A model generated the notes under the pieces. That model did not search any database and was not told where the DNA came from. It was given only the letters and a program-made list of their open reading frames with translations. A DNA stretch of 53,888 bases, the filler included, from Stramenopiles sp. TOSAG23-2 (lineage: Eukaryota), in assembly GCA_900128395.1 (NCBI GenBank). It is 4 parts of 4 records of this genome, joined end to end, with 100 filler letters (N's around TTAATTAATTAA, not from the genome) between each part and the next. Parts side by side here need not be neighbours in the genome. Positions count along the whole stretch, not along the records: positions 13,521 to 26,930 come from LT649803.1; 3 more parts are not named here. One strand, given 5' to 3'. This document shows, piece after piece, positions 10,417-36,296 of this stretch. Both the position numbers and the translations under genes were made by a program. Numbering within the stretch: the stretch's first letter is position 1; the number at the start of each line of letters is the position of its first letter.

Positions 10417-11161
10417 TATAAAGAAAAAAAAATTCCAAATATTTCCTCTAATTTGATAGCATAAAAATGTTCTTGTTACTATACTAAAAAAACTCCAATT
10501 TGTAGAATTGTTCTTTTGGAATTAGGCAGTACACAGCATCATGGTGATATGTCCATGTTAATTTTACTGTACACACGTTTTTTATGTCCCGGATTTCGTT
10601 TGAACACAGCGGGACATTAGCTGTGTGCCTGTTAATTAGTATGGACATAGTAGGACGGGACATTAATGCTGTGTATATGCTATTTATTTTAAATATGGTA
10701 AATTTAGCATGGACATAGCGCATGTCCCAAAAATGTCCCAAATGTCCCGATATAATCTGGGACATGTGCTATTCAATGCTAATCATTTCAGGCCTATTGC
10801 TTAGTAAATTTTACTGTACACACCCTATCCCTCCGAAATCGCAGGCATCGAAATGTGCATTGCAAATTGTTGCAACAAATAAATAAATACATTCTTTCGT
10901 AAAAAACAAAATTATGTTTTTGAATTGAGGAGGCCGGCCTAGAAGAAAGTGGGAGAGAGTAAAAAGGAAACAACAAAATTATCGTTTTGAATCCTATTTT
11001 ATCGAATGCCCAAGGAAAGTAAGGTATCATATTTTTTTCATTAATACATTATCATATATATATATATATATATATATTTGTAATTAGTTATATATTATAT
11101 TCATAATAGTACTAGCTACATTTGAATTGTTATACAAATACAAAATAATACTCCTAGAATA

Positions 11162-12829
11162 ATGATGAAATTTGTAATAGTAGTAATAATCTTAACTGTA
11201 ATAAATGGTTGTTTATTATTATCATCAACCAATGCACAAAAAGCACCTTACGTCCACCATGAAATTTACGAACAAATACAAAATCATGGTGGCGATAAAG
11301 ATATTCCTGTTATGATTTATTTGCATAAAAATGCAAATTTAGAATCAATCCAATTCTATGATACAAATGATGATAATATCATCAGTAGAGCGGAAAAAAG
11401 GACTCAAGTGTATCAATATTTAAAACAATTTACAAAAATTAATCAACATAATGTTATAAATACATTTGCAAAACATAGTGCAAACGAAAGTATTCAATAT
11501 ACAAGTTTTTGGATAGTAAATACTATTTTAGTAGAAAACTTGAATGAAAAATTATTGCATGAATTATTAAATGATAGTTCAAGTATTAATGATATTAAAA
11601 AGATATTGCCAGCGTCACATAATGGATTATTTCGTATCAAGCAGATTCCATCGGAAAACTTGAATGAAAAATTATTGCATGAATTATTAAATGATAGTTC
11701 AAGTAGTAATGATATTAAAAAGATATTGCCAGCGTCACATAATGGATTATTTCGTATCAAGCAGATTCCATCGTTAAAAAAAATCAACAACCATAAGAAC
11801 AAAAACAACGATATTCAATGGAATATTGAAAAAATCAATGCAAATAAATTGTGGGACAAAGGTTTTAATGGGACAGGTGTCGTTGTTGCTACGTTAGATG
11901 GTGGAGTGAATTATCAACATGAATCTTTAATAAATAATTATCGTGGTACAAGTGCTGATGGTAAAACATTTAATCATGATTACAATTGGAACGATTGGGC
12001 CTATAAAAATAAAGTGCCTTTTGATAGCGAAGGACATGGTACGAACGTCCAAGGAATTGCAACTTCTTCAAATGGTTATGGAGTCGCATTTGGAGCAAAA
12101 TGGATTAGCGGTAAAATATTTAATTATGCAGGATATTCTGCAACATCATGGACTATTGGAGGGTGCCAATGGGCAATGTGTCCTTCGCCTGTGAATCAAC
12201 CAGGAAAAAATGAAAATTGTTCATTAGGTGCAGATGTTGTAAGCTGCAGTTGGGGGGAAGATGATGCAACAGAACCATATTTAAAAAAAATTATCTCTGC
12301 TTGGGAAAAAGCTGATATGATTCCCGTTTTTGCTGTTGGTAATGGTGGCCCGAAATGTGGCACTAGCGTATCACCATCTGATTATCAAGGTGTAGTTGGT
12401 GTCGGTGCATCATCGCAACAAGATAATATTATGGATTATTCCAGTCGTGGTCCGGCAAATATAAATGGATCGACCTTAATAAGTTCATTGCCATATACAC
12501 CATTGGCACCATCAATTGTTGCACCTGGATATGATATTCAAGGTCCTTCTTGTAATAGTAACGATGGGTATAAAGGAATGAGTGGAACCAGCCAAGCAGC
12601 ACCACATGTTGCTGGTGCAGCAGCATTATTATTATCAACAAAACCGAATTTATCATCAAAACAAATTTTACAAGCATTACATGATGGTGCAGAACAAAAA
12701 GATTTACAAGATCCAGATGGTGATGATAGTTGTGGTGGAATCGAATGGAATAAATTCCCAAATTATATATATGGTTATGGCCGTTTAGATTGTTACAATG
12801 CTTATACAAATCTAATCAAAAAAAATTAG
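11162..12829 (+). CDS. Secreted subtilisin-family S8 protease (bacillopeptidase F-like) with propeptide
   Basis: Signal peptide; triad motifs VATLDGG (Asp), GHGTNVQG (His), SGTSQAAPHVAG (Ser); oxyanion VGNGG; QWAMCP and PNYIYGYGRLD motifs; contains an in-frame 40 aa duplication. Confidence 0.93.
   Translation: MMKFVIVVIILTVINGCLLLSSTNAQKAPYVHHEIYEQIQNHGGDKDIPVMIYLHKNANLESIQFYDTNDDNIISRAEKRTQVYQYLKQFTKINQHNVINTFAKHSANESIQYTSFWIVNTILVENLNEKLLHELLNDSSSINDIKKILPASHNGLFRIKQIPSENLNEKLLHELLNDSSSSNDIKKILPASHNGLFRIKQIPSLKKINNHKNKNNDIQWNIEKINANKLWDKGFNGTGVVVATLDGGVNYQHESLINNYRGTSADGKTFNHDYNWNDWAYKNKVPFDSEGHGTNVQGIATSSNGYGVAFGAKWISGKIFNYAGYSATSWTIGGCQWAMCPSPVNQPGKNENCSLGADVVSCSWGEDDATEPYLKKIISAWEKADMIPVFAVGNGGPKCGTSVSPSDYQGVVGVGASSQQDNIMDYSSRGPANINGSTLISSLPYTPLAPSIVAPGYDIQGPSCNSNDGYKGMSGTSQAAPHVAGAAALLLSTKPNLSSKQILQALHDGAEQKDLQDPDGDDSCGGIEWNKFPNYIYGYGRLDCYNAYTNLIKKN
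11534..11773. repeat. 120-bp in-frame tandem duplication, one mismatch (Ile/Ser)
   Basis: 11534-11653 vs 11654-11773; agtatt vs agtagt. Confidence 0.95.
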
Positions 12830-14320: not shown

Positions 14321-14992
14321 TGTTATTATTATTATCTAAATTCACGTTATTGCAATATATATATATATACATGGAATCACTACTGTCAGAGATAGACAAC
14401 AATTGTAGAATAATAGTATTTCTTTTCCATCCATTATACATCAGAAGAGCCTACAGTATGATATATATATTTATACTGTATATATATATATAAGTAGGTA
14501 AAAATAGGAGGTAAAAAAGGTAAAGGGGGTAAAAAACTTATAAAAGTTTGTTCACCACACAGCTGTATACTTTGTTGATAGGCTCTTGATATACTTGAAG
14601 TTGGGAATTGGACACAATATAATATATAATATATAATATAATAATATAATATAAATAGCACAGTAACAGGGAGAAATTATTATTACATGTTATTTATTAC
14701 AGAGTTTCTTCCAGTTTCTTCCTCCTCTAGGCCATAGCTCATATTAATAATAATAATAGTAATAGCATTATAGATCTAATAATAACTAACTAATAATAAA
14801 TATTACTATAGAATAAAAATGTATAGACTTTAGTTTCTTTTTTGTTTTTTTTTGGAAGATGTATATACATAACCAAGAAAGTGTTGTGATATTATTGTCA
14901 TTAGTATTAGTATTATTATTATTATTATCATCATCAATTTATTCTCTATAAATACACAAATCCGAATTTTGTGAAAAAAAGAAGAAAAAAAG

Positions 14993-17900
14993 ATGATGAT
15001 TAAAAAAAAGAATAATATAATACTAGTGAAAAGTATAAAAAATACATCATTATTCAAATATTTATTATTATTATTATTTATCGCAACTTTTTTTTCCAAT
15101 TGTAATAATGTAATAAATTTGAATAATATGCATCTAATTATAAGTTTCAGTGCGATGATTGCATTTTCTAATTTGAACAATTATAAAATTGATGATTTTC
15201 GCTCATTTGGAAATAACAAAAACTTGTCACGTCGTTTAATTATTATTATTATTATAATCATTAGTAATATATTATTCAATAACGTTAATGGACAAACAAC
15301 AAATTGGGATTGTAAGACAAGTAGTAATAGTAATCCAAATAGTGGAATTTATAGAAAGGATGAAAATTGTACTATATCCGGTAGTGACGGTCATGTTGTA
15401 GTAACGAATACGTTAGAAGTTATTGGAAGTAATGTAGATATGAATAATTTAATTACAATTACTGCTGCGACAAATCAACGTCATTTTTATTTAAATGATG
15501 CAAATGCTACATTAATATTACGTTATTTAAAATTAGTTGGTGGGGAAATTAGTGGCAATAGCGGTCAGAATAGTTATGGTGGATCAATACTAATTTATAC
15601 AAACGGAGGCCAAGCAAAGTTGTACTTTACAATTTTAGAAAACAATAAAGCTACGTCTGGGGGCGGAATATACGCACGCGGTGACCGTAATGGCGCTATT
15701 TACATATATAATAGCATCATTAGGAACAACGAAGCAACTGTTGATAGAGGTGGTGGAATTCGGATGTATTATTCAAATTATCCTGGTGCTGGTATCATTG
15801 TAAATACAACATTTAGCCATAATAAAGCTAAAAGTGGCGGTGCTATGGATATTTACGATAGTCGAATTATGTTGAAAGATTGTACGATATCAAACAACGA
15901 AGCTTCATACAAAGGCGGTGGTCTGTTTGTAGAATCGGCTGGAAACATTATATACTTTCAAGATGCTCTATCGGTTGACAATAATAATAGGGTGGCAGCA
16001 AGAATTTTTTGCAATTCAAAAGGGTTTAGATTGGCAACAATGGCTGATGCCGATGCGATCGATTACTCCAAATGCAAAGCAGGTATATGGGAGGATTATT
16101 TGGGATATCGTATGGTAGGAACATTTACTGGTTGTGGTACAAACACTTGGAACAGCTGGAATGATTGGGATGATTATGGTGGAAAATCACCATATTGTTA
16201 TATTGATTCTTTAGGAAGTTTGAATATTACAAGAACTGTTATTCGTAACAACAAAGTAACCACCAGTGATTTTATTGTGAATATGAATGGTGGTAGTGAT
16301 GTATATTCATATAGTATGAATGGTGGTGGTGGTGTATATTTAATGAATGCTGTAGAAATTACCATCCGCGAATCAATGTTTGCATTGAACAACGCATATA
16401 ATGATCAAGGCGATGCACTTGTTGCTGGAATTGCAGAAGACGATGGTGGTAGAGATTATTCAAATCAAATACCATCAATAGCAATTGTAAATACATATGT
16501 TGACAGTCTACGCAATAGCATTATGTTTTATTCGTTCTCGATCAAATATTATGTAGTGCGTATTTATGCCCATAGCGGCACGGATGGTTTTCTTAATTTG
16601 ATGGAGGTCGAAGTCTCAGATACATCAGGAAACGACCTTATACTTTCTGAAGGTAAATTAGGTGAAATGTATAGTAATGCTTATGCATCTTATTGCAACG
16701 ATGGTGCAACAACCTCTGGGTCGAATTGCCATTCTACTGCAACTGCTGGTAAAAATTACGTTTCATTTGTGTTTTATACTGCTAAAACAAGTGTGAAAGT
16801 TACATATCATAATCGATGTGATGGGCAGGACCATCGGATTGCAAATGGAAAAATTGTTATTTACGAAGCAAATCACCCAGATCAAAAAGTTGAACAGTTT
16901 AATATAGCCAATCCTGGTGCATGCAATAGTAAATCATATACGATGGTATTACCATCACGTACTACATTAGGTGTAAACTGGAATACATGTTCTTCGTCAC
17001 CAGCGCTTTGTTCAGAACCACCATTTACAGGTGTATGTGAAAATAATGTAGCACAACAACCAGTTTTTAGATGTGAGGCAGGATGGGAACGTAGCGATTC
17101 AGGCAAATGCTATAAATATGATGCCGTGGAACGGTCATGGGAAGATGCAAAGACATATTGCAATGGAATCGGAGGTATTTTAGCATCAATTCATTCAGCG
17201 GAAGAAAATGATTTTATAACGCAGATGTTGGAGCAACAATCTATATCTGGTACATATATGAGTGTTTGGCTTGGTATGAATTCAGCAACGCATAACGAAT
17301 GGTTAGATGGAACAGAATTTGATTACATTAATTGGCATGAGGGAGAACCGAGTGGCGATGGTTCATGTACAATGATTTGGATTGCAGCGGATCCATCTAG
17401 TGTAGATTACCATGGTGAGTGGAATGATGCAGGTGGTAATCATGTCTTTCCATCATTATGCATGAACGATGCAACAGCAGTTTCATCAGGAGTTACTTGC
17501 AGTGCATCGTGTCCATCGAATCACTATTATTATCCAAGTGGAATTCATGCAGGATGCTCATCCGCAATGTTGGAATGGGATTGTATCTCTGCAAGAAATA
17601 AAGGAACATATCGACGAAGTAGTGATTGTACTATATCTGGTAGCAACTATGTTCCTGTCTCTGGTACATTAGAAATTATTGGTGCCAACACCGATATGAG
17701 TAATTTAATAACAATTACTGCAGCAACAAATCAACGTCATTTTTATGTAAATGGTAAAAATGATAAATTAATATTACGTTACTTGAAATTGATCGGCGGT
17801 GATGTTAGCCGCCATTCTAGTGCAGCAAGTAATCTTAGTGGAGGTGCAATATTATTTGTAAATGGTGGAGTTGGAATGTTGTTTAGTGTACACATACATG

Positions 17901-20900
17901 ATAATTCTGCTGCACAAGGTGGAGCAATAGCTGTTGAAAATAATAGCACTTTGAACATTATTGATTCCAATATACGAAATAACCATGCTATTGATGGTGG
18001 TGCATTTTGGATAACTGCTTCTTCAACTTTATATGTTAATGACACTATAGTTGAATTAAATTCAGGAATTAATTTCGGTGGAAGCATAAGTTGTATGGAC
18101 AGCATGTGTTTTTTAAATAGTTCAACTATACAAAAAAACAATATAGCCCATGAAAGATATAAAGATGAAACTTTAAAATATAATGAATCGTTGACGTTGA
18201 CGTCACCATTATTGCAATATGGATATTTGAATCCAACCGGAATTGTTGGGAATACGTTTAATGAATATTCTGTTTCGATGTGGGTGAAAGTAGATGCGTT
18301 TTCATCTGATTGTAATGCAATATTTTCACTAGCATCGGATATAAATGAGAATAATTTACTGATGCTAATAAGACCAAATGGTAAGCTAGAAATTATTATT
18401 GCTGGGCCAGGGATACAATCTTCATCACCAACGTTTTCAGATAATGGCTGGCATCATGTTTGTGCCTCTTACAAAAAAAACAGTGCTAACACATTTGCTG
18501 CCATTGATGGGATAATCGAAATAACTATGTCTGCATCCAGTGATATTAGTAATAGTCCATCCACTTCGAAAATCATTCTTGGCGAAGAGCAAGATATTGT
18601 TGGCGGTAATTTCGATAGTACCCAATCACACATTGGTCGAATTAGTGATGTAACAATATACAATCGGAAACTATCATTAAGTGAATGCCAACAAGCAAAA
18701 GATGCTAAATATTTATCCGAATTTCCATCAAATCCGTTGTATACATGGAATAACTTTAAAACTATAGGTTTAGAAATGCCAGCTATATTCCCGTCACAAG
18801 AACTGAAAAAAGATAGTAGTGATGCAACAACGCATTATGGATATTTAAGTCCTACTGGAATCCGCGGGGATACATTTAGCGAGTATGCTGTTTCTATGTG
18901 GGTCAAAATTGATTCGTATTCATCTGAGATTAATACTATTTTCTCCTTAGCCTCGTCAATTAGTACCAACAACTTTTTACTAACGATAAACAATGAGGGA
19001 AAGATTAAAATAGATTTATCGTCTACACAAGCACGATCTACGTTTGCAACATTTACAGATAACATAGCTCATAGTAGTAGAAGATGGCATCATGTCTGTG
19101 CTTCCTATAAAAAATACGACCCATATTCATTTGTTGCTGTGGATGGAATACTTGAAATAACATTTTCAGCATCACTTGATATTAGTAATGTGCCAAAAAC
19201 GTCAATAATAATTCTCGGTGAAGAGCAAGATAGTCTCGGGGGTAGTTTTAGTAGTGCACAATCCCATATTGGCCGAACCTCTGATGTTACAATATACAAT
19301 AGAAAATTATCATTAAATGAATGCCAACAGGCAAAAGATGCTCGATATATGTCAGAATTTCCAATGAATCCTTTGTATACATGGAATGAGTTTTATACTA
19401 CAAGGAATGGAATGTTGCGTGATTCATCAAGATGGGATACGGAAGCAAAAGCAGGTGGAAACGGTATATTTGTGCATGGAGGTAGTGTCAACTTGCATTC
19501 CACACTCATATTAGATAATTATAACAATATTGGTCATGGAGGTGGGATATCTATTAATTATGCCACTGCAAACATATCCAATTGCACCATTAATTATAAT
19601 CAAGCAGTACAAGGTGGTGGTATATATGCATACGAAAGTTCTTTGCTAGTAAGCAATAGTGAAATATCAAATAATAATGCTAGTATTGATAATGAATGGT
19701 ACCTTTTACCACCAAAGGTATCAGGTACAAAATCAGTATATTCATCAACAACATCATCCAACACATGCGTAGAAGCAACAATAGATGCATGTGAATCCGC
19801 TGTTGCGTTATTATTAGCCGAGGCCTATCCCAAGAATGCAAATTATGAAGGCAATAATATACGCAATATGCAAGTGGGATCAGGAGGAACTTGTAATGAT
19901 AATTCATGGGGGAACGTGCCATTAGGATGCTCTGCTCAAATGAGTTGGACAGCACATTTTAAGACCGGAGGTGTAAATTGTGGTCATGAAATGTATCAAG
20001 TAGTTTGTCGAGAGGCGGAACAACGTGGTGGTGGCATTTCGTTACTATTCAGTGAGGCAGCATTGGAAACCTTGGTAATTTCAAATAATCAAGCTAGAAA
20101 TCAAGGTGGTGGAGTGTTTGTAAATTCGCCAGGACAAATTAAATATTTTTTAGAAGCACTTGCGGTAAATAATAATAATAGGGAAGCAGCAAGAAACTTT
20201 TGTGTTTCAAAAGGATATAGATTAGCCACCAAAGCTGATGCTGATGCAATAAATTACTTTGAATGCCAGGCTGGTATATGGGAAGATTATCTTGGGTGGC
20301 GTATGGTTGGGGTTGTTAGTGGTTGCGGCTCAGATGGTTGGAATGGTTGGAATAGTGAATTTAACAACTATGGCGGAAGGTCTCCATATTGTTACGTTGC
20401 CCCATCTTCTATTAGCATTACCAACACTGTTGTACGAAACAATAAAATACAAAGTAGCTCAAATGCTGGTATAAATGGTGGCGGTGGCTTGTATTTGCAA
20501 GACAGCCAGAAAATTGATATACGTGAATCATCGTTCATATCAAACATTGCTAATAATAATCGTGGTGACGAAATTTGTATACTTACAACAGAAGCACATA
20601 TGGCGATGAGTGAAAAAAAAGCTATTGTAAATACGCATTTTAACAATCCAACTAGTAGCAATACTTTTGATTCATTGTTGGAGAAACAATACGTCGTCCG
20701 TGTATATGCTGCTGCCAATCTGGCTTTGAATTTGGAGGAGGTTGAAGTTTTAGACAATAGAGGACATCGGATAAAACTGACTGATGGAACGTTGGGAGAA
20801 CAATATAATAGTCACGTAGCCGCATACTGTAATGATGGTATTATTGACGCTTCAGATTCTACTTCCAATGATCCTATGCATTGGAATTTTTGTCACTCTG

Positions 20901-23900
20901 ATACCACGGAAGGTAAAAATTATGTTTCATTTGCATTCATCACATCTGCAAACGAAGTTCAGGTAAAATATTACAATCGATGCGATTGTTGCAATGATAG
21001 AATTGCAAATGGCAAAATTGTTATTTACGATGCAAATAACGAAGATAATAAGGTAGAACAGCTTAATATAGTTAATCCTGGTTTATGCAAAAGTCAATCG
21101 TATACACTCACGTTGCCAGGAAAAGCAATATCAAGTGTAAAATCATGTTCATCGGAAGTTTGTACACAATCGCCTTTTACTGGTACATGCACGGCAGTAA
21201 ACAATATTGATGAAGATTCAATGGAAAATGGATTTTGTGTAACAGAAGATGGAGGAGATCAAAATGCAGGAGTAATTAAATTAAACTCATTAGATATTAA
21301 TACAGCAGACCGACGTAAAAATTGTTTATATTTATGCAAAGCTACATCAGGTTACACTGGTTGTGAAGGTATTTGGAATGAAGCCAATCGTGGCTGTTAT
21401 GTTCACACTGATGCTGTTTCCCATGGAAATAATGCTGCTAACCACGTTTGTTGGATAAGAAAACATTCAAATGTAATAAATCATAATATGGATTTAGGTG
21501 TAATATGTAACTACATGACATGCCCTGCAAATACGTACCGCAAACAAGTGACTGCATCATCATTACCACCTGCAAGTGATGCAATATGCCAATCCTGCCC
21601 AAATGGAAAATATACCCGTACACGTAATGGAATAGAACCAATAGAATTTAGAGACCAAATAATCGATTGTATTGCACCACCAAAAATATTATCCATGTCT
21701 CCAAATATGTCTTCCATTTCTGGTGATGTTATCACCACTATTATAGGGGAAAATTTTGGCATCGATAACAATTCACACATCGTATTTTCGGTTATAAATC
21801 CAAATACCAATGAAGAGTTTACATGGAAAGATATTGTTTATATTTCTTCTAGCCAAATACAGGTAACTTCTATCTTTGGAAATGGTCAAAACTTATTGGT
21901 TCGTATGAGTGTTGATGGTATTAGTTCCATTTTATTAAATACGGCTGATCAATTTAAATTTAGTTACTTGGATCCAAAAATAGTTTCGTTCGTCTCTCCC
22001 CCTTTTCAAGGTGGAACGTTACAAATTATAGGCGAATCATTTGCAAAACAAGCGGAAAGTAAAACAGAAGTAGCAATTGTAGATAACAATTGTGAAGTTC
22101 CATGTACAGATATGCGAGCAATATCAGGAACAGTAATACATTGTCAATATGTTGGATTTGGGCAACCTAATACTTGTACAAACAAAAGTATAGTCGTTCG
22201 AACGAATTTTGGGAATAGCATTCGAGAATCCAATCGTGTTGAATTGTGTTATGATGTTGATCGTGGCGAGCTGGAAAATGTCCCAGAGTTAGACCAAACG
22301 GTTGTGGAAACAGATGGATTTGTACGATATGGAATATCATTATCCGATGCTGTTGTCCCAAACCAAAACGTCCAAGTACGAATACGTAGTGTTTCATATG
22401 ATGCACTTATGAATAAAATAGATGAGAAAAATGGATACAGGTGCATTCCTTCCCCCAAGTTAATTACAATTAATAATTTAAATCACAATGAAACTCACAC
22501 AATTACAATAAATACAGAAGATAATAAAGTAGATGAAGGGACATTAGAAACAATTGCATATAAATGCGAAATTGTACATAGTATAGAGTCATTGGATAAG
22601 CAATATAATCAATCTGCTGATAAAGTATTACGTATCAATATATTAAATGACGATCGCGCTGATTTTAAATTACAACTTCAAGATGAAAATAATCCTGCAA
22701 CGTTTGATGAAGAAAAAGTAAAAACTGTTGGACCAATGTGCATGGTGGAAGCATCGAATCTCACATATGGTATCACATTAAGTACACGGCCAACAAAACA
22801 AGTAGCGATATATCATCAATTACAATATAAATATATTGATTCACCATTACAATTTGAATTTACTCCCACACTTCCAATCGTATTTCAACCATATGAATGG
22901 AATAGTACAAAATCATTTACAATATCTGTGAAACACGATGTAGTAGATAATCACCAAGACATAGATGCTATTGTTGTTAGGCATTGGGTAGTAACAGAAG
23001 ATCCAGTCTTTCAAACCAATGCATTAAATGCAAGTGCTAAATTTCGTATAACAGATGATGATACTGCTGGCATTCAATTAGCACCAGATTCAGTATCAAT
23101 TGTAGTAAATGGTGGCGTGACACGAATTATTACAATAATGCCGTTATTGTCAAAACCGATGGATTCAGTCACATTGAAGATAATTAATGTAGATAATATT
23201 GAAAGTGTAAGTGTTGTTCCAGATTCCGTCGTTGTAACACCAGAACAATATCAACAAGAAACGAAATTCACCATGAAAATATTAGATGATATTACAAAAG
23301 ATATAGCATTTCAAATGCGTGTTGAGCCAACAAGTTTAGATTATAAATATAATGGTGCTAGTAGTAGCAAATTAATAAGTGTATTAATACCACCAGACCC
23401 ATTGCTACCACCTGTAGCACCAAAAAATGTTATTATTAAACGCATTAATACGTCGTATATGAGGGTATCTTGGGATCAAGTTGTTGATAATTTTGCTGAT
23501 ACTGAAGGAAGTTCTTACGATTTAGTATATAATATGAAATATGGTGTTACAAAACCATTGGATAATTCTACTGGTACGTTTTATCGTGTTGTCAATTCCA
23601 TTAATGCAACTACATATGATTGCATCTTACGAACACCATTGTATAAAAAACCATTGTATAAAAAAGTCATGTATGTTATGGTACAAGCAAAACGTGTGAA
23701 ACAAAATGCATTAAATGAAGCTCCAACGTATAGTGATTGGTCGATTATTACACCTGATTGGAAAATTGCATCTGAATGTGTTTTCGATGCTGAATATTTA
23801 AATACAACATGTGATTATCCATTAGGACAAAATGGTGATTCATGTGAACCATGGGCTTGTAAAGTTTGCCCAGAAGGTGCATCTTGTAAAGGTCAAAGAA

Positions 23901-26405
23901 ATTGGAAAGATGTAAAAGCAAAATTTGGATATTGGCGCCATGAAGCAGATATGGCAAAACGTAGCGAGTTTACAAAATGTTTATTTCCACCTGCATGCCA
24001 AGGAGATTCCAATGTGATGTTTAAAGACCAATTTGCAAATTCAACAGGATTTGATCCAGCAAGCATTGATAGACCAGAAGGTTGTGCGTATGATATAGGA
24101 TATTCCATTAAATGTTTAGGTGATGGCGCACCACGTTGTCGGTTATGTTCAACATGTGCGATTGGGTACAAACGTAAGATTCAAGATGGTATGGCTCGAT
24201 GTAGTAAATGCCCTGTAAAAACAGCAAATGTGTTTTTACTGATAGGTGGAATAATTGTTGTTATTGTGTTACTGGTAATGTTTATAAAATCACATTTAGA
24301 AAGTGGTGGTAAACGTACAACCGCTGATATGTATAAAATTATCATTATCAATTATTTACAATTAAGTTCATTAACAGCTGGAATGGATGTGCCATGGCCA
24401 AATGTGCTTGGATTTGTATTTGAGATACAAGGTGTTATTAGTACGATTGGGGAGCATTTGTTGAGTCCCGATTGTGAATTGCAAGGTGAGTCATATATAT
24501 ACACACACACACACACACTGTAACTCGATACTAACCAAGCATTTTAAATATCAATCGAACATTTTAAATTTTATTAACAATTTACAACATTATGCAATAA
24601 TATTAGGAATGCGTGCTTCTGATTTGATATATGCAAAACAAATTGGATACTTGTTACTACCATGGATATTAGCATCGTTATCGTATATTGGTTGGAGAAT
24701 CATTAGTTATAAACAAGGTCGTATATTTACGTTTAGAGGATTTGATGATAGATCCCCATCCTTGCTTGATGGTTGTGTTGCAACGATTGTATTTTTACTT
24801 TATTTAATGTATCCATCATTATGTCGAAGTGCATTTGCATTGATTATGTGCATTACCGTAGATGGCAAATCGTATTTATTAGCTGATTTACAAGAACCAT
24901 GTTTTGAAGGTAGACATTTAATGTGGTTTTTATGTTCCACGATACCACAGATATTATTATATGTCATTGGATTGCCGTTGTTTGGCTTTTTTACTATTCG
25001 TAAATATGCAAAGAATCAACGATTGCAACATCAAATTACGCAATTTCGCTATGGCATGTTGTACTCCGGATATCGTGTTGAACGATGGTGGTGGGATTTA
25101 ATTGTTGCATTTCGTAAAGCATCGGTTGCATTGATTACCTCATGGTTGGTTGGTGAATTTGAAGTGCATACAACTATTGGTATGCTCACATTTGTAATGA
25201 TACTGAATGTTTGGGGTAATCCATACACCGATTTAGCTATTAAAGACAATACAGATAAAAACGTAAGTCGTGGACAGAAATTATTGTTGCTAGATACATC
25301 TGCAAATTTTATTATATTTGTAACAGCATGGTCTGGATTATTTTTTATTATATATCCGCATTGTGAACATCATACAGGATGGTGCATAGCAATGGTTGGA
25401 ATTGTGGCATTTGTAAATGCTCTTTTTTTGATTTTTTGTCTTGTTATATTTTTAAATGAAAAATACAAGGAAGGCAGGTTTGAATATATTGATCATCTGA
25501 GAAATCTTAAGAAGAAAATGGTAAGTTTTGCTTTGGGTTTGTGGATTGAAGCGTACATCAAGTGGTGGAGTTTCTCAGATAACTGCATTTGATTCTGTGT
25601 GGAGCGAAACAAACCCCTCTATACACAAAATTATTGCAAAACAATATCTAACATATTATATATATATATATATATACGAAAGCCATGCTTACGTGTTTGT
25701 ATCCGTGTAGATGATAAACCAGGATATAATGAGGCTAGATTACGAATCAAATATGAAAAAGAGAAAGAAATACAACAACGTTCAAGATCACAATCAAACC
25801 CTTTAAAATATAGAAAAAGTTTTGTGAAAGAAAAGTCAGTAGTTAATCCAATGATGGATTTTGCTCTTGATACAAATGCTAATGGAGATATTGAAATGGT
25901 TGGAAATCCAATGGGTAATAATAATAATCGTAAAAAACAATATAGACGTAAACGTGGTAGAACAATGAGTATTATCGATAATTTGAAGGATGAGACATCA
26001 CAACAAAATATTCGATTTAATAATGTTTTGAGTAGATCAAAGCGTTTGAAAGAGCTTGCAATAAAAGTGCGAAAGGCGAAGGACATGAAGAAACAAAAGA
26101 TGATGAAGAAGAAAGGTGAAGATGTAGAAATTGTTGAAAGTGGTAGTGTTGAAAAATTTGAGATACATATGGGGAAAGGTGGTAGACAGGAAGCAATTGG
26201 GCGTGGATGGCATAAAGTTGTGGTAACAAATAGTCAGAAAGTTTTGTATTTTAATGAATATACAGGAAGTATGACTGATAAACATCCATTTGGATTGTTG
26301 GAGGGGTGGATTATGATGTTTGATGAGGGTACAGGTCAATTTTATTACTATCATGGAGGGAGTGGGGAAACAAAATGGAAACGACCGATGAATGTGAATC
26401 GGTAG
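14993..26405 (+). CDS. Giant multi-lectin multipass membrane receptor, ~3,709 aa; exons 14993-24485, 24607-25520, 25683-26405
   Basis: GGxI/GGG beta-helix repeats, 2 Link-like modules, 2 F-type-lectin-like domains, C-type lectin (EPS/WND), 2 pentraxin domains, PAN-like module, IPT/TIG, FN3-like, Cys-rich stalk, multipass domain (YLQLSSL, VPWP, YLLADL..C, YGMLYSGY...WWW, RK, PY) and C-terminal WW domain(s); both introns join in frame. Exact start codon uncertain. Confidence 0.85.
24486..24606 (+). other. Spliceosomal intron (phase 1)
   Basis: CAAG|GTGAGT...ATTAG|GA with CA microsatellite; joins ELQG-MRASD in frame. Confidence 0.85.
25521..25682 (+). other. Spliceosomal intron (phase 0)
   Basis: ATG|GTAAGT donor, CTAAC branch-like at ~25648, AAG|CCA acceptor gives KKM-PCLRV in frame with the WW exon. 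Confidence 0.7.
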
Positions 26406-26930
26406 TAGTTGTTGAGGTAGTATAGATGAAACAATGAAAAATATTTTGGATGGATGTTGGTTTGTATAGATATATAGCGAAGACGCAGTATACAGATGGT
26501 AAGCGAAGAGGCGAGGATCTCGACTAGTATAGAGATATGTTTTACTACTAGTAGAGAAACTGATTTGCATTTTCTTGGTTTCTATAGGCAACACAATTTC
26601 CTGAAAAATTAAAAATTGATGAAAATATTTTTTAGTCTAGATTTAGTATAATTTCCGCAAAACAAATTATTATTGTGATTTTTTCTTTTATTCTAATTAG
26701 TATACTTTTCCTATCAAACCAATTGTATATTTTCTCATTTTCTCTGATGGAATAGATCTTCCAGATCCAAATCTACGTTTTCCCATCAGGAATAGCACTG
26801 AATAGCATTGCTATAGAAATGGTGTAAGACAGAAGAAAGTATATATATTCTATATCCTTCTGTGTGTTGTATTAATAAAATGAAGAAGTATAAAGAGGCA
26901 GAGGAAGCACAAAAGCTGATGCATATAGAA

Positions 26931-27030: not shown

Positions 27031-28159
27031 TATACTAAAGTCATACTTAATATAAATATTTTACTAGTTTTAAGGAATTTTACGTCAAAAAGGACCTTCT
27101 TAAGGCTGTTCCCCTATATGCCAAATCGGCACCTTTGATCTTTTGTGCTGTCGTATGTATTTTGATGTGCACATTTAACAAGTGTGTGTATATGTGTTAT
27201 TGTGCAGACCGAGGAAGTGAAAAAGAAGAGAGAGCTAGCGTGTGTTTTTGTATATCTGTTTATATATTTTTATATATGTATACGCTTTCATCGTAGTTTC
27301 AAAAATATATATGATATCTGTTGTATCGGACGAGCGTACATATATAATAAAAAGATGTTACGCGATATTTTTAATAGCGTGAAGGAAGGCATGTTTCCGT
27401 GGAATGTAATCTTGCTGTGTATGTTATCAGCGTTTAAAACCAGAAAGAAACAACAACGAGAATCGACCATATCCATCATAAACACACACTTTAACGATAC
27501 AAACAAAAATAGTAATTTTTATGAAAAAGGTGGGCATTGATGATATAAAACGGTATGAGGGCAAAAAAAAACTTAAAACCGCGCTTGTTCGGCTGAGACG
27601 ATTGTCGACAGTTGATGTATTGCAAACAAAATATTGATGATGAAACTTCTTTAAGCTCAGAGCTCCACCGTTGATCTGATTGATCTATGAATAGAAAAGA
27701 GGTATAATAACGATTAGAAGTTTTCGGAAAATTTTCATCATCCAAAATTTTATGTAAAACTCGAATCTCCGTGATGTGTAAGCGTTTATATATCAATTGT
27801 AAAATATCATTATTTTATACACCTTAAGTAGATATGCACATATTATGATATAAATATGATCTAAATCAATAGTAGATAAATTAATAAGGTTCCAGCTTTC
27901 ATCATCTCACCTTCCTTTTCCTTTAAAAAGCATCCAACACAATATTAATATTGAACGAATTGCACAATTGCACAATTGTTTCCTACAATGCAACGTGCCA
28001 ACCAATGTGCCAATCAATAATAAAATAAAAATAAATAATAGATACACTGCCAGACTGCATGAACAGATACATAAGTATGTATAGTCTAACAACAACCTCG
28101 TGTTGATGATAATATAACTATACCATTATATTCACCTGTACCAAAAAGAAAGAATAGAA

Positions 28160-31100
28160 ATGAAATCTTCAACCATATATTACATGATTATATTATGTTT
28201 TCTAATTGTTTTTATATATAATCTATTAAACTCGTTGTTAAATATTAAATATGTACATGCGAATAATCAAATTATTATACAATTTAAAAATAAATTACAA
28301 GAAAATGAAAATAAAGAGTTACCAAAAACATTATTAAAAAACACTACAATTGTAAATATTACTACTACTACCACTACCAATGACAATAACAATAATAACA
28401 TCATCATCAACCATAATCGTAATGGAAGAGGATATTTTAAATTTGCAAATGATCCTAAATATTGTGACAGAAGAAAATATAATACAGGATGGATAACATG
28501 TTTTGCAAAGGGAAACATCATCAACCATAATCGTAATGGAAGAGGATATTTTAAATTTGCAAATGATCCTAAATATTGTGACAGAAGAAAATATAATACA
28601 GGATGGATAACATGTTTTGCAAAGGGAAATGTAGAAAATTTAAGAGAAAATTTTTTAAAGTTTAATTTAATAGAAGTTCCAGCATTTCCAACTGTTAATA
28701 GTGGAAATCCGTTTCAATTATTATGGGAGTTAGCTGACCAAGCAGATACTCGTAATTTTAAAGGTTATAAACTATTAAATAAAATTCAAAAAATAAATCA
28801 TTTTCCAGGCGTACGACAACTCGGTAATAAAGCTTTTTTACAAAGAAATATGCAAGTTGCAGTTAATAAATATGGATTGAAAATCTATAATATTTTTCCA
28901 TTATCATTTAAAGTTCCAACACAAATTGAAAAATTTACCAATGTACATAATAAACTTGTTAAAAAACAACAATTAAATGATGTAATAATTAATAATGTTA
29001 ATAATAATAATAATAATAATAAAATATCATGGATTTTAAAACTATCCGGTAAAGATAGAGGTGAAGGATTGAAACTGATTAATGGACCAAATGATTTAGA
29101 TAAGAAATCTCGAGGGATCGTACAACAATATATAAAAAATCCATATTTATTAGAAGGAAGGAAATTTACAATTCGACTATATGCTGTATATACTTCATTG
29201 AAACCTGCTAGAATATATATATACCTGGAAGGTTTTTGTCATATAGCAACAGAAAAATATTCATCAAATGTAAAAGAAATAAAAAATCGATATATGCATA
29301 TAACGAACCCAGATATATCAGGGAAAAGAGATTTTTACAAGAAAAACCCACGGCCTTATTATTGGTCGATATCTGAAATGAGAAATTACATGCGTAAAAA
29401 TAATGTAGATGATGATAAACTATGGGGAGAAATAAAAGTATTAGTTGCTAAAACATTGCTTTCTGGTATTGATAATTTGAAAAAATATTCACGGAAAATA
29501 AAAATATCAAATGAATTTGATATTATGAAACAACAAAATTGTTTTGAATTAATTGGCTTGGATATATTAGTAGATGCAAATTTCAAACCATGGTTATTGG
29601 AAGTTAATCCAGATCCAGATCTTTCCGCAAAATCAAATTTTCCTTTAGCAAAACACGTTAAATCTGATTTATTACATGATTTATTACAGTTGATTGGTAT
29701 TTTACCTCTTGATCCTTCATTTCCTCAAAGAACGAAAAAAAAAAGTCACAAGCAAGAGTTTATAGATAAGATGACGGAATTGCTCTTTACATATCCAGAT
29801 AATAGCAAAGCTATTACATTTTTAAGCAATAATATGTTTCGAGATGGTATTTTTTATGGTAAATTATTACATGCAGATGATCCAAAATATGTTTCAAAAC
29901 ATGCCAAATGTCATATTATTACCTTGTATAATCAATGTAAATTTATAAGTGAAAAAGATTTCATACAATACATTCCAGAATTTGTTGAATCGGAATTAGA
30001 ATTGAGACGTATTAAATTTAATAAAGGAGCAGGCTCGAAATTTGGTAAACGTTTTGAACGTGTTTTACCGAGCCCAGATCCAAGTTATTTAAAATGGTTT
30101 GAAACAAAAAAAGATAATGATATCGATAAATTTATGTCTTGTTTTGAGAAAGCATTTATTGACCATCGTTGTGGCAAAAAGAATTTCTTTGGCAAACGAA
30201 ACTTAAACAAAATGCAATTGGAGAAGAACAACAATGTCAATGTTCAATACCACGGCTTGCCATTGGGTAACAATGTAAATATGCAATCACCACTATTGCC
30301 ACCATTATTGCCATTCAGTAAGAAATACTTTGGCAAGGGAAAGTTAAACAATATCCGGGCGAAATACTACAAAAAGAACGTGGACAAGAAGAACAATGCA
30401 AATCCAACGATATCATTGAAAAAACCACACCCATTTTTTAGAACAAATAATAAAAAATGCGAATATAACTGTCAACACGAATGGATAGCTGATAAAGGGC
30501 ATTACGAAATGTTGAAAAATCTTCAAAGAAGCCCTAAAACGGACGATTTTCTTAAAACTATTGTTAACTTTTTAGGCGAAAATAAAGTAGTTGAATTGGC
30601 CACAGATAAAGCATGGGAAGCAAGAATCATAAGAGACAAAACTTGTAATTTTAACATCATTGATCTTGGTAGTTCCGTTCCTGTCCGATCAATTGAGCTA
30701 TGCCGATTTATAAAATGTTGCAATCATTTAAGTGCAATGGACCCCTCCAAATTAGCAATGAAAAGAGGACGTTCATACGCAAAGGAACGGTTAGGTGATG
30801 TTTTTGACTTTAAACCAATTGTAGGCTTAATCAATACCGTCAAAGCATCGGCATTTGGTAAAAAAAAAGAGCAATATGACTTGGTAATGACAGCACAGAT
30901 GTTACAACATGTGCCACGTACTAGCTATGTTGAAACATTTAAAATATTGCATGATAATATAAAATTTGGAGGGCATATAATTACAAATGAAATTTCAATG
31001 GCACCATTAAATAGAGCAACAATAATGAACCCCAAGTTTTGGGTACCACTTAATTTATATTATCGTAGAATGGAAAATTGTATACATGGTGAGATTTTTT

Positions 31101-31558
31101 CTGCATATTTATATTTAACACAACGTTATGAATATGAATATATGTTATGTGATAAATACTCAGAGTTGTCAAAACGACAAAAAGATGTTTCGTATGTTTA
31201 TAACAAAAAAAAAGATACAAATAAAGCAAAGATAAATATACCAGAACCAATAGATTGGTATAAAAGAAAGATGGATGATAAAGAAATATCAAATAAATAT
31301 CCAAAGGGAAGAATGTTAATGGATGGTTTAGGGGATAAATGGGCTTATAATATGCGAATGTGTACTGGGATTTTAAGAAAGAAAAAATTAAACGAGTTAC
31401 CACCAGATTTACCTCCATTTGAAAAACAAATATCAAATATTATTAAAAAATTAAAAACACCTGGATATGACAAGTCTTGTAAATATTCGTCCAATGTTGG
31501 AGTAAAAGATGTTTCCAAATCAAAACAATCTATAGATGCAAATCTTGGTTTGTACTGA
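28160..31558 (+). CDS. Signal-anchored tubulin-tyrosine-ligase-like (TTL/ATP-grasp) protein with C-terminal class I SAM methyltransferase-like domain
   Basis: N-terminal hydrophobic anchor; NHFPG..LGNK, WILK..RGEG, IVQQYIKNPYLLEGRKF.IRLY, HITN, CFELIGLDILVD..KPWLLEVN.DP; then IIDLGS, YDLV....MLQHVP, IKFGGHII. Confidence 0.85.
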   Translation: MKSSTIYYMIILCFLIVFIYNLLNSLLNIKYVHANNQIIIQFKNKLQENENKELPKTLLKNTTIVNITTTTTTNDNNNNNIIINHNRNGRGYFKFANDPKYCDRRKYNTGWITCFAKGNIINHNRNGRGYFKFANDPKYCDRRKYNTGWITCFAKGNVENLRENFLKFNLIEVPAFPTVNSGNPFQLLWELADQADTRNFKGYKLLNKIQKINHFPGVRQLGNKAFLQRNMQVAVNKYGLKIYNIFPLSFKVPTQIEKFTNVHNKLVKKQQLNDVIINNVNNNNNNNKISWILKLSGKDRGEGLKLINGPNDLDKKSRGIVQQYIKNPYLLEGRKFTIRLYAVYTSLKPARIYIYLEGFCHIATEKYSSNVKEIKNRYMHITNPDISGKRDFYKKNPRPYYWSISEMRNYMRKNNVDDDKLWGEIKVLVAKTLLSGIDNLKKYSRKIKISNEFDIMKQQNCFELIGLDILVDANFKPWLLEVNPDPDLSAKSNFPLAKHVKSDLLHDLLQLIGILPLDPSFPQRTKKKSHKQEFIDKMTELLFTYPDNSKAITFLSNNMFRDGIFYGKLLHADDPKYVSKHAKCHIITLYNQCKFISEKDFIQYIPEFVESELELRRIKFNKGAGSKFGKRFERVLPSPDPSYLKWFETKKDNDIDKFMSCFEKAFIDHRCGKKNFFGKRNLNKMQLEKNNNVNVQYHGLPLGNNVNMQSPLLPPLLPFSKKYFGKGKLNNIRAKYYKKNVDKKNNANPTISLKKPHPFFRTNNKKCEYNCQHEWIADKGHYEMLKNLQRSPKTDDFLKTIVNFLGENKVVELATDKAWEARIIRDKTCNFNIIDLGSSVPVRSIELCRFIKCCNHLSAMDPSKLAMKRGRSYAKERLGDVFDFKPIVGLINTVKASAFGKKKEQYDLVMTAQMLQHVPRTSYVETFKILHDNIKFGGHIITNEISMAPLNRATIMNPKFWVPLNLYYRRMENCIHGEIFSAYLYLTQRYEYEYMLCDKYSELSKRQKDVSYVYNKKKDTNKAKINIPEPIDWYKRKMDDKEISNKYPKGRMLMDGLGDKWAYNMRMCTGILRKKKLNELPPDLPPFEKQISNIIKKLKTPGYDKSCKYSSNVGVKDVSKSKQSIDANLGLY
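28402..28629. repeat. 114-bp in-frame tandem duplication
   Basis: 28402-28515 = 28516-28629. Confidence 0.95.
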
Positions 31559-34481: not shown

Positions 34482-34771
34482 ATGTGTTTCTCAAAATTAT
34501 TCAGTAGTAGTCGTTTCAGCTTCAGGGAATGGTGGATGATATGTTTTCTGTGGATTATAATGTTCACCACATAATGTTAGATAAATCTCATTGTTGACTG
34601 GTACTTGTACATTGCAATCGGCATATATGTGTTTCTCAAAATTATTCAGTAGTAGTCGTTTCAGCTTCAGGGAATGGTGGATGATATGTTTTCTGTGGAT
34701 TATAATGTTCACCACATAATGTTAGATAAATCTCATTGTTGACTGGTACTTGTACATTGCAATCGGCATAT
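34482..34771. repeat. 145-bp tandem duplication of the PDE 3' end
   Basis: 34482-34626 = 34627-34771. Confidence 0.95.
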
Positions 34772-36296
34772 TTTTTCCAACATGCAATGTTATTTTCAAT
34801 GTTTTTCACCATTGGAGTTACAACCTCTGGACAGAATTTTTGCATGGGCTTGTATAATGGCAATGCCACAAATTGTAGAAATCCCATTTGTGATTTTGGT
34901 AAATAATCTTTCACCCGATCCATAAATCCCAATACTGGCAAATCATTTTCTTTCTCTTTGTCACCTTGCATATAAAATTCTTCAACACAACGTTGAGACC
35001 ATTTATAATGCGTATCAAAGTTACGGGCAGGATGAGACACATCCCCTATTTTTAATATCATTTGCATCACTAACGCCACGTGATCATTGTTATCCCATTT
35101 AATATTATTTTCTGGGTCATCTTGAATTAAATTTTTAAATTGGCCAACTATTTCAAAGTTTTTTGCCATATCAGTTGCTAATACAGTTGATATACAAATT
35201 TTTCTAAATTTTTTCTGGTCATCAATTTGAAAGTTTTTTGTAATTTTGCATGAATCATCACTCATTGCGACAAATGCCATGGCAACATGATGATTCTCCA
35301 ATGGACTTTGATCATTATATGCTAATGCTAATTGATCCCCAGTATTTATTAAAAAAGAATTGTTCAATCCTGGATGATCATAATCATGAATAGCAGCAGA
35401 TATGATTAGTGAAAAACGTTCTAACTTGTTCATATTAGTTGCGTTGCTAGCATGGAGTAAAAAATGTGTAGTGGCCTGCACAACATCTGCAGCGTGAATT
35501 TTATTATGATATGTATTGGAAGATCGATACCCTTTCTCAACGCAACGGCAAAACTTTGCCAAAACACTTTCATCAATATTTAAAGAAGAAAACAAATCAA
35601 ACTCTTCTAAAGCAAATACGACAAGATGTAACAATGGGTTTTTAGTAGTTTTAGCAAGTAAATGGACATCATAATCCCATTCAAACGGCTTACAAGTTTG
35701 ACCTTCTTCAATATTTTTTAAACCTAAATCTTTGTGTATTTTGGAATGCTGGCTCCCATCACTAGTGAAACTAGAGCCACTATTACCCCTATTCAACACA
35801 CTACGTTTCTTAGCTTCTTTGTTCATACTAGGCGCTGCAATAGTTGCTATTAGCTCCCCAACATGTTCATCCATCGGATTTTCTTGTGGGAAAATATTAT
35901 CCGTATTAAAATTCAATTTACCATCTACATGTTTTGCTAATATATCTTTCATTTCTTTCACTGCTTCTTGACATTTGCTAATTTTACCCTCAATCACTAC
36001 ATTACTTTCGTTATCTTTCTCGTTATTCTGACTATTGTCCACCTTTAAATTTTCGTTAATAAACTCTAATAGTTTATTAAATTTAATTAAAGGTGTATCA
36101 TCTTGTAATATTTTACCTTGTGGTTTCGGTGAATCCGTGACACTTGTATTATTATTATTAATATCCGTATCTAGATTTTTCGCCTCCTCCAATTTCCTTG
36201 GCGTCGTGGTTTCGGTGAATCCGTGACACTTGTATTATTATTATTAATATCCGTATCTAGATTTTTCGCCTCCTCCAATTTCCTTGGCGTCGACAT
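34642..36296 (-). CDS. Class I 3',5'-cyclic nucleotide phosphodiesterase (522 aa after removing an 86-bp duplication; start MSTPRK at 36296)
   Basis: YHNKIHAADV, HDYDHPGLNN, LENHH, LATDM, DVSHP, EEFYMQGDKE, SQMGF. Confidence 0.93.
36120..36291. repeat. 86-bp tandem duplication (frameshifts PDE start)
   Basis: 36120-36205 = 36206-36291. Confidence 0.95.

Follow-up and report, generated by a model that had tools for sequence, protein, structure and literature searches.

The stretch of DNA analyzed here (the window) comprises 53,888 nucleotides of Stramenopiles sp. TOSAG23-2, joined from four parts of the assembly GCA_900128395.1. On its plus strand, within the part taken from LT649803.1, it harbors at 14993-26405 an intact and expressed gene of three exons, which codes for a very large modular membrane protein. 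A head of lectin-type modules, a stalk, a nine-helix membrane core and a basic tail with a WW domain can be recognized in its sequence, and the protein seems to be a contact sensor belonging to a widespread protist protein family. A previous sequence-only reading had described the gene as a giant receptor which combines four animal-style glycan-recognition folds with a multipass domain and a WW tail.

Structure and Expression of the Gene

The gene is organized as follows.

14993-26405, plus strand: whole gene, 3 exons, 3,709 codons and a stop codon (open reading frame list, translation, splice models)
14993-24485, plus strand: exon 1, residues 1-3164 and the first base of codon 3165 (open frame)
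24486-24606, plus strand: intron 1, 121 nt, GTGAGT..TTAG, phase 1 (sequence and read-through in relative P0055)
24607-25520, plus strand: exon 2, residues 3165-3469, encoding the greater part of the nine-helix core (splice model, family matches)
25521-25682, plus strand: intron 2, 162 nt, GTAAGT..AAAG, phase 0 (frame, read-through in relative P0205)
25683-26405, plus strand: exon 3, residues 3470-3709 and the stop codon, basic tail in the cytosol carrying WW-like domain 1 and WW domain 2 (Pfam, alignment)
14993 (M1), 15128 (M46), and 15152 (M54), plus strand: candidate start codons (hydrophobic stretches, comparison with relative P0003)

The open reading frame (ORF) at 14975-24523 (+) extends over 3,182 codons with zero stops; the two other plus-strand frames of the same interval contain 220 and 363 stops. 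At 24486 a GTGAGT donor closes exon 1, and the frame is restored in phase 1 by an AG at 24605/06; a GTAAGT donor at 25521 combined with the acceptor at 25681/82 leads in frame to the stop codon at 26403-26405, yielding a protein of 3,709 residues, as had been expected for one spliced gene of about 3,700 amino acids. Both predicted splice junctions rest on homologous proteins reading across them. At junction 1, P0055 (72% identity over residues 3008-3391) reads CELQ-G-LRAADLIY across without a gap, and at junction 2, P0205 (73% identity over residues 3166-3709) has KKKV-PCLRICIRVDD where the gene model has KKKM-PCLRVCIRVDD. The strongest-looking acceptor of intron 2, at 25709/10, was rejected; together with the GTAAGT donor it causes a frameshift and a stop after 33 residues so that the WW domain is lost, and a weaker donor at 25525, which would rescue the frame for this acceptor, removes residues that are kept in P0205. 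The start of exon 3 is placed at 25683 because P0205 reads straight over the junction and the rival acceptor is out of frame.

When an index of RNA data was queried with 24000-26405, 23 runs from 9 studies were found to contain part of it; most of these are metatranscriptomes of seawater, and several had been prepared with poly-A selection. Four of the runs, each from a different study, were then compared with 14500-26900 and placed 6, 12, 12, and 9 contigs, mostly at 95-99+% identity, covering all three exons. One contig (X1 record 3) begins to match at 24605 with 7 unmatched letters ahead of it and another (X2 record 13) at 25686 with 50 more letters that misfit the DNA to its left, i.e., both begin matching 2-3 nt from the predicted acceptors. 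The match of a third contig (X8 record 28) begins at 25695, like that of X2 record 13 upstream of the rejected acceptor. These contig ends are compatible with the splice model, short of proving splicing. No listed RNA piece lies inside 24486-24604 or 25521-25685, where missing cover by such short contigs proves nothing.

One might suspect an assembly error, a gene in decay, or a model that wrongly fuses three genes, for in the four RNA runs no contig joining exons is listed over 14500-26900, and the N-terminus with its two hydrophobic stretches is odd. Such an artefact is highly improbable in view of the 3,182-codon frame free of stops, of the exon pieces recovered from RNA libraries at near identity, and of P0002, P0055, P0205, and P0206, in which stalk, core and WW tail occur in one chain and whose alignments cross both junctions.

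With regard to the N-terminus, hydropathy reveals hydrophobic stretches at residues 19-41 and 77-100, both ahead of the first beta-helix. Residues 77-100 directly precede the conserved WDC..CTIS start of the beta-helix, which is the site of the signal peptide in relative P0003. Because there are two such stretches and the signal peptide of P0003 corresponds in position to the second one only, the true start may be M46 or M54 rather than M1, and the first ATG might possibly lie within the 5' untranslated region (UTR). RNA pieces at 14974-15006 are short low-complexity matches and uninformative on the 5' end. In the 3' flank, 36 nt at 26491-26526 are the sole matching part of several RNA contigs, with unrelated sequence on both sides, and may represent a short dispersed repeat or a common UTR element.

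The Nine-Helix Membrane Core and Its Family

24230-25463, plus strand: nine-helix membrane core, residues 3080-3450, split by intron 1 (hydropathy, family columns, model of relative P0059)

Hydropathy identifies a strongly hydrophobic first transmembrane helix followed by a multipass region. The relative P0059, which is 40% identical to residues 2914-3528, was modelled with AlphaFold2 (AF2) at a mean predicted local distance difference test (pLDDT) score of 76.8 and a predicted template modelling (pTM) score of 0.71, with pLDDT mostly >90 in the core block, and its model displays nine long helices (205-232, 239-258, 297-330, 346-373, 396-429, 457-474, 478-499, 510-539, and 548-589). In the core alignment of 62 family sequences all 16 of the 16 invariant or near-invariant columns are retained in the protein, among them the two Cys of an extracellular hairpin and a cytosolic R..W..RK motif. 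When exon 2 is used as the query at a threshold of E ≤ 0.001, 4,249 representative clusters are detected, mostly from environmental and largely from marine data; 974 of them reach E ≤ 1e-10 and 38 reach E ≤ 1e-30. Judged by these alignments, the membrane part is not a generic multipass region but a nine-helix core that is conserved in a very large family of protist proteins. Since the number of passes is odd, the head is Cys-rich and glycosylatable (25 N-glycosylation sequons in the ectodomain), and loops and tail are basic, the Cys-rich head would be located outside and the basic WW tail inside the cell.

Among solved structures none resembles the core, and fold matches to G protein-coupled receptors (GPCRs) and TRP channels are not above noise. 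However distant, a link to the Pfam family PF06011 appears through intermediates. This family is detected in 18 of the 62 aligned relatives at E ≤ 0.01 (best 1.6e-8), and two of the long relatives scanned, P0193 (31.6 bits) and P0140 (29.3 bits), score above its gathering cut-off of 28.5 and match exon 2 in the same region at E 8.8e-25 and 3.3e-27, respectively.

A Pfam census of 25 long relatives (E ≤ 0.001) and of 22 further relatives (E ≤ 1e-4) gave the following occurrences, with the first set named first: Ephrin_rec_like in 17/25 and 5/22, WW in 9/25 and 3/22, TIG in 6/25 and 1/22, Beta_helix in 3/25 and 0/22, cNMP_binding in 1/25 and 5/22, TRP (PF06011) in 5/25 (two above the gathering cut-off) and 1/22, and no family at all in 3/25 and 7/22. 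Lectin_C, ANF_receptor, FG-GAP, PA14, and JmjC occur once each and DUF6445 twice in the first set, whose tails carry FYVE once and EF-hand once; single cases of FYVE, DEP, EF-hand, and TIG combined with PMP repeats come from the second set. Pentraxin was found in none and Lectin_C in one of the 47 long relatives scanned. According to this census the chassis is common in the family and the lectin/pentraxin head is rare. The tails in which WW, cNMP-binding, EF-hand, DEP, and FYVE domains replace one another (P0143, P0159, P0154, P0196, P0182, P0114, P0069, P0142, P0064, and P0211) suggest that the same core may be wired to differing second-messenger or trafficking systems. As a separate observation, P0002, P0073, and P0130 carry JmjC/cupin or DUF6445 domains, which are 2-oxoglutarate-oxygenase-like, at the N-terminus of the presumed extracellular head, an odd site for enzymes. 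Among the open-access papers searched, none was found that describes this family with lectin/pentraxin heads or WW tails.

The Stalk and the WW Tail

21500-24217, plus strand: stalk, residues 2170-3075 (TIG, sub-threshold Pfam matches, conservation in P0002 and P0003)
26205-26288, plus strand: WW-like domain 1, residues 3644-3671, lacking the second signature Trp (sequence reading)
26304-26387, plus strand: canonical WW domain 2, residues 3677-3704 (Pfam WW)

The stalk begins with a Cys repeat and two IPT/TIG domains; beta-rich repeats without a family assignment follow over about 380 residues, and an FN3-like segment and a juxtamembrane module with 15 Cys complete it. TIG (PF01833) is matched at residues 2230-2313 with E 9e-5 and 22.8 bits (cut-off 20.9). 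The FN3-like segment (fn3, PF00041) remains sub-threshold with E 0.026 and 15.2 bits against a cut-off of 25, and the same is true for the 15-Cys module (residues 2925-3075), for which DUF7630 (E 0.031) and TNFR_ELAPOR1 (E 0.079) are matched. The tail, which is basic and cytosolic, comprises about 260 residues and has the WW-like and the WW domain at its end. WW domains bind Pro-rich motifs. Domain 2 (PF00397) is called with E 5.2e-8 and 33.2 bits (cut-off 26.9); domain 1 is not called by Pfam and has the same degenerate form in P0002 and P0205. Multipass domain and WW tail of the sequence-only reading are thereby confirmed, and of its IPT/FN3/Cys-rich stalk the TIG and Cys-rich parts hold while the FN3 part falls short of the Pfam cut-off.

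Stalk, nine-helix core, and WW tail of the protein recur in the relatives P0002 (2,511 aa), P0205, P0055, and P0003. The alignment with P0002 covers residues 2239-3703 (36% identity over 1,633 alignment columns), and that with P0003 covers residues 2224-3447 (24% identity). P0003 in addition shares beta-helix units beginning with the WDC..CTIS motif; the head of P0002 differs, as it carries a JmjC/cupin-like domain and is devoid of lectins. The alignments indicate that the stalk of about 900 residues, the core, and the tail are a conserved chassis and that the head is the variable part.

The Head and Its Binding-Type Modules

The following elements were distinguished in the head.

15299-16957, plus strand: head cassette 1, residues 103-655, right-handed beta-helix into which a four-Cys module is inserted, with an F-type-lectin-like end (Chlam_PMP, identity to cassette 2)
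15983-16201, plus strand: four-Cys "Link-like" module copy 1, residues 331-403 (Xlink, sub-threshold)
16538-16957, plus strand: F-type-lectin-like copy 1, residues 516-655 (H-X27-RCDGQDHR and CNDGA motifs; 56% identical to copy 2)
17072-17464, plus strand: C-type lectin-like domain, residues 694-824 (Pfam Lectin_C, motifs)
17573-18142, plus strand: beta-helix 2, residues 861-1050 (start WDC..CTISG..ITITAATNQRHFY as in cassette 1; Chlam_PMP E 0.069)
18218-18751, plus strand: pentraxin domain 1, residues 1076-1253 (Pfam Pentaxin, best stretch 1089-1240)
18836-19390, plus strand: pentraxin domain 2, residues 1282-1466 (second Pentaxin stretch)
19430-21127, plus strand: head cassette 2, residues 1480-2045, beta-helix, Cys modules, and F-type-lectin-like module (alignment to cassette 1)
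Residues 1566-1675, plus strand: extra Cys module in cassette 2 (no Pfam family)
Residues 1726-1801, plus strand: four-Cys module copy 2 (no Xlink match)
Residues 1896-2045, plus strand: F-type-lectin-like copy 2 (H-X27-RCDCCNDR motif, F5_F8_type_C_2)
21218-21472, plus strand: Cys-rich module, residues 2076-2160 (no Pfam family at E ≤ 10)

On the basis of these domain matches, the head is a predicted array of about 2,100 residues on three right-handed beta-helix scaffolds, which carry modules of binding type. The scaffold in cassette 1 is recognized by Chlam_PMP repeats (E 4.8e-7), and a whole-length search retrieves mostly bacterial Beta_helix/PMP proteins at 3-11% query cover, with only two proteins sharing more than the beta-helix part with the present one. 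Residues 300-660 and 1690-2050 form an internal duplication (55% identical), each copy consisting in order of a beta-helix, a small four-Cys module, a beta-helix, and a jelly-roll-like module. No near-length homolog of cassette 2 was obtained at E ≤ 0.001 among 1,752 candidates.

In exon 1, Lectin_C is matched at residues 714-824 with E 1.6e-13 and 51.7 bits (cut-off 22.6). Sugar-binding C-type lectins possess the Ca2+-site-2 motifs EPN or QPD plus WND. Here, EPS is found at 785 and WND at 810, with Ser, neither Asn nor Asp, as third residue of EPS, which suggests a C-type lectin domain with a near-complete Ca2+/sugar site. Two Pentaxin stretches are matched with E 2.6e-38 and 132.1 bits (cut-off 25), and Laminin_G_3 scores lower at 102.7 bits. 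The pentraxin signature is H-x-C-x-[ST]-W-x-[ST]; both domains contain HVCASYKK, at 1155 and 1367, in which H, C, and S are retained, with Y in place of W and K at the end.

The sugar motif of F-type lectins has been described as HX24RXDX4(R/K) and their Ca2+ motif as h2DGx in the parts of a report available to us (PMC12221842). RxDx4[RK] occurs exactly twice in the 3,709 residues, at 608 and 1996, both times inside the F-type-lectin-like modules, and CNDGA or CNDGI is located upstream of the His, the first two positions not both being small hydrophobic residues. A search of the PDB with a profile of the two copies ranks the pneumococcal fucolectin-related 2j1r first (E 0.074), aligned on the YNRxD....R strand, and yields eel agglutinin 1k12 at E 1.6. 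Language-model (Atlas) features give 0.95 with 170 shared, and ten of the ten best named matches are F5_F8_type_C clusters. These modules therefore probably possess a galactose-binding-like jelly-roll fold, and they appear to retain the basic Arg-x-Asp-x4-Arg part of the fucose motif of F-type lectins; that they bind fucose is a less confident prediction than the fold.

The four-Cys framework and an "A..C..G..LAT" helix presumably recall the alpha-1 helix of Link domains and C-type lectins, an assignment that is unproven. Xlink (PF00193) is the only Pfam row for copy 1, with E 0.067 and 13.9 bits against a cut-off of 27, and copy 2 has no Xlink match. Link or lectin chains are absent from two PDB sequence searches with this module, which gave only spurious gp41, SH3, and PsbW rows; hhalign assigns a probability of 1.4% to the match between the Link-like profile and the gene's own C-type lectin domain; and the Atlas features (0.87 to InvE_AD and Lcl_C clusters) are leads only. 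The head therefore has four small Cys modules without a fold assignment, i.e., the two four-Cys modules and those at residues 1566-1675 and 2076-2160. Of the seven recognition modules that had been proposed on beta-helix scaffolds, which are themselves corroborated, three are firm, namely the C-type lectin, whose match falls inside 17072-17464, and the two pentraxins, whose stretches coincide with ~18218-18750 and ~18836-19388. The two F-type-lectin-like modules have moderate support from motifs, 2j1r, and features, and the Link assignment of the remaining two is unproven.

A multivalent lectin-type head with 25 sequons, set on beta-helix/PMP repeats as they are typical of bacterial adhesins, would also fit a purely adhesive or structural surface protein for prey capture, attachment, or coat organization, in which the core serves only as an anchor or trafficking chassis. 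An anchor, however, would hardly need the 16 near-invariant core positions kept over thousands of clusters, nor the regulated-signalling tails (WW, cNMP, EF-hand, FYVE, and DEP) of the relatives, and CRMPs, the closest studied proteins (see below), act in exocytosis signalling and not in attachment alone, according to the portions considered of one report (PMC9670195). We consider a purely adhesive role unlikely.

Likewise, the head might recognize glycans on cells of the same species, in self or mating recognition, instead of those on prey or pathogens. F-type lectins serve in fertilization as well, according to the same partial source as above (PMC12221842), and heads that vary fast between relatives seem typical of recognition loci; evolutionary rates, on the other hand, are unmeasurable here, as the similarity goes beyond the beta-helix part in two proteins only. 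A mating receptor appears distinctly improbable to us.

Comparison With Known Systems and a Possible Function

By architecture, the closest studied proteins seem to be the CRMPs, i.e., CRMPA/B of Toxoplasma, CRMP1-4 of Plasmodium, and CRMP1/2 of Tetrahymena. As far as the accessible parts of two reports go, their heads contain CLECT, ephrin-receptor-like, EGF-like, Kringle, Ig-like, and parallel-beta-helix domains, their conserved core consists of two EGF-like modules and nine transmembrane helices with the N-terminus outside and the C-terminus in the cytosol, they are essential for contact-triggered rhoptry exocytosis and for mucocyst exocytosis in Tetrahymena, and similar cores are predicted in Dictyostelium proteins (PMC9670195, PMC9815656). 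Shared with the present protein are a large modular ectodomain including C-type lectin and beta-helix, and Cys-rich modules directly before a nine-helix core of the same predicted orientation, in proteins that have been proposed as contact sensors. In the present case, nine helices are indicated by hydropathy and the P0059 model, and the outward N-terminus and inward C-terminus are those predicted above; the Cys module preceding the core would be the 15-Cys module, with its sub-threshold matches, and Ephrin_rec_like is found in 17 of the 25 long relatives. In contrast, pentraxins, F-type-lectin-like modules, and a WW tail belong to this protein and are not mentioned for CRMPs in the parts of the reports considered. 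Furthermore, CRMPs are described there as acting in A/B heterodimers with MIC15 and TSP1. The present protein stems from a free-living marine protist. Among the open-access papers searched, none was found that links CRMPs to PF06011.

PF06011, a fungal "TRP-like" family of presumed calcium channels, comprises Pkd2, Trp1322, and Trp663 of S. pombe, Flc1-3 of S. cerevisiae, and TrpR of A. nidulans, as listed in the consulted part of one source (PMC8618638). These fungal proteins resemble ours in that a multipass core connects an N-terminal domain outside the cell with a tail in the cytosol, and differ in that their head is small and ML-like (TRP_N) according to the same part (PMC8618638), compared with a modular head of 3,000 residues here. 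Reconstituted S. pombe Pkd2 passes Ca2+ under membrane stretch, and as far as the available excerpt indicates Ca2+ permeation has been demonstrated for the fungal PF06011 proteins only (PMC9727806). One might therefore think of a tension sensor, in which the head is fastened by its lectin and pentraxin modules to the coat, scales, or matrix of the cell or to a substrate, and pull or stretch opens a cation path like that of Pkd2. The stretch-activated Ca2+ permeation of Pkd2 forms the only functional data for the PF06011 superfamily in that excerpt (PMC9727806), the stalk is long and rigid-looking with TIG and beta-sandwich repeats kept in P0002 and P0003, and EF-hand and cNMP-binding tails in relatives would be reminiscent of ion channels, which often carry them. 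Yet the link to PF06011 is indirect, no channel-like fold match was obtained, and the hypervariable heads (JmjC-like, ANF receptor, FG-GAP, PA14, and lectin) fit diverse ligands better than a single tether, which makes a mere tension sensor rather improbable.

The ectodomain of animal polycystin-1 (PKD1) includes a C-type lectin domain, and PKD1 and adhesion GPCRs are alike by analogy in placing a giant adhesive ectodomain on a multipass domain. The analogy with adhesion GPCRs has been drawn by the CRMP authors as well, in the part of their report considered (PMC9670195). In contrast to those proteins, the core has nine helices here and no GPCR or TRP-channel fold match above noise, and PKD, REJ, GPS/GAIN, PLAT, and 7tm families are not detected by Pfam at E ≤ 0.1. 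Similar modules co-occur in mosaic F-type lectins of animals, for example in the long pentraxin PXN1 of Xenopus, which combines an F-type lectin with a pentraxin, and animal proteins combining F-type and C-type lectin domains exist (PMC12221842); these are soluble or single-pass proteins with the canonical HX24RXDX4(R/K), whereas the present modules have X27, a predicted fold, beta-helix scaffolds, and a multipass domain.

Taking these comparisons together, we propose, with a probability of roughly 0.55, that the protein is a contact sensor of the CRMP/TRP-like type whose lectin-type head is multivalent. The head would bind, at several sites at once, glycans or other ligands exposed on a particle, prey, or partner cell, and binding would be passed through the rigid stalk to the nine-helix core. 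The core might then signal by conformational change or by permeation of cations (Ca2+), as in its distant fungal relative Pkd2, and the WW tail could dock Pro-rich (PPxY-type) cytosolic partners, leading to a local response such as exocytosis, uptake, or adhesion. The gene structure, the domain identities given above, the membership in the core family, and the conservation of key residues are matters of observation; the topology, the class of ligands, a possible ion flux, the partners of the WW tail, and the response of the cell are inferred. The identity of the core together with the CRMP-like build provides a concrete precedent for a sensor coupled to signalling, and it also makes the protein a member of a family and not a unique invention.

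Several points weigh against a contact sensor with such a head. For the core, PF06011 gives no Pfam row at E ≤ 0.1 in exon 1 or exon 2 of the protein itself, and the relation to this family, at superfamily level, is transitive only; likewise, the relation to CRMPs is one of architecture. On the side of the head, pentraxin-type domains need not bind sugars, and the Link assignment has failed every test. In both F-type-lectin-like modules the upstream His is 27 residues away instead of the canonical 24, so that the published motif is not matched, shuffling of the protein produces one or more H..RxDx4[RK] matches in 11% of cases, and the two RxDx4R copies are duplicates and hence not independent. 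Copy 2 matches F5_F8_type_C_2 sub-threshold (E 0.0073, 17.3 bits against a cut-off of 27.8), and copy 1 has no Pfam match. The AF2 model of cassette 2, for which the internal duplicate was the only aligned sequence, is unusable with a mean pLDDT of 36.7. With regard to the tail, a motif scan finds no PPxY or LPxY motif in the protein itself. The lack of a listed RNA contig across the exons, mentioned above, counts on the same side. The sequence-only reading of a four-fold sensor coupled to intracellular signalling thus survives in its architecture and gains the CRMP and Pkd2 precedents; its Link fold is unproven, and its F-type part has moderate support.

A more specific version of the contact sensor would be a free-living counterpart of the apicomplexan CRMPs acting as a lectin-gated trigger. 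In that case one chain would simultaneously bind several glycans of the prey surface (fucose- and mannose-type, together with pentraxin ligands) and thereby open or activate the Pkd2-related core, and a local Ca2+ or conformational signal, read by WW-bound PPxY partners, would cause extrusome exocytosis or phagocytic uptake at the contact site. We offer this as a speculative proposal, doubtful in its full detail. If it were true, the thousands of environmental relatives with other heads might amount to a combinatorial "taste" repertoire of marine protists.

Prey recognition by grazing protists is an open question with few molecular candidates, and the gene provides a concrete one. In it, C-type lectin and pentraxin domains are joined to a core of the kind that Toxoplasma and Plasmodium need for contact-triggered secretion, and pentraxin, C-type lectin, and probably F-type-lectin modules, which are mostly treated as components of animal innate immunity, are combined in one receptor outside the animals. 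What makes the finding valuable is above all the family, whose representative clusters number no fewer than 4,249 and come mostly from environmental, largely marine, sources; the gene itself is an elaborate representative of this barely studied, widespread family and embodies no new principle.

Other Genes in the Window

No second copy of the receptor family is present within the window. Ordinary eukaryotic neighbor genes are the following.

11126-12829, plus strand: subtilase S8
28118-31558, plus strand: tubulin-tyrosine-ligase family
34642-36234, minus strand: cyclic-nucleotide phosphodiesterase
36890-38857, minus strand: Kelch-BTB
49756-53037, minus strand: GH38 alpha-mannosidase

Two further loci deviate from this pattern. 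An ORF of 940 codons at 3205-6027 (+) encodes the seven-helix domain of class-C GPCRs (7tm_3, E 8.5e-27), and in the usual place of ANF_receptor it carries a bacterial-type solute-binding head (SBP_bac_1, E 3.8e-9). An ORF for Ribonuc_2-5A (KEN-type RNase) at 39643-40467 (-) closely follows, in the reading direction, a protein-kinase ORF at 41149-44298 (-), and the two look like one IRE1-like gene split by an intron.

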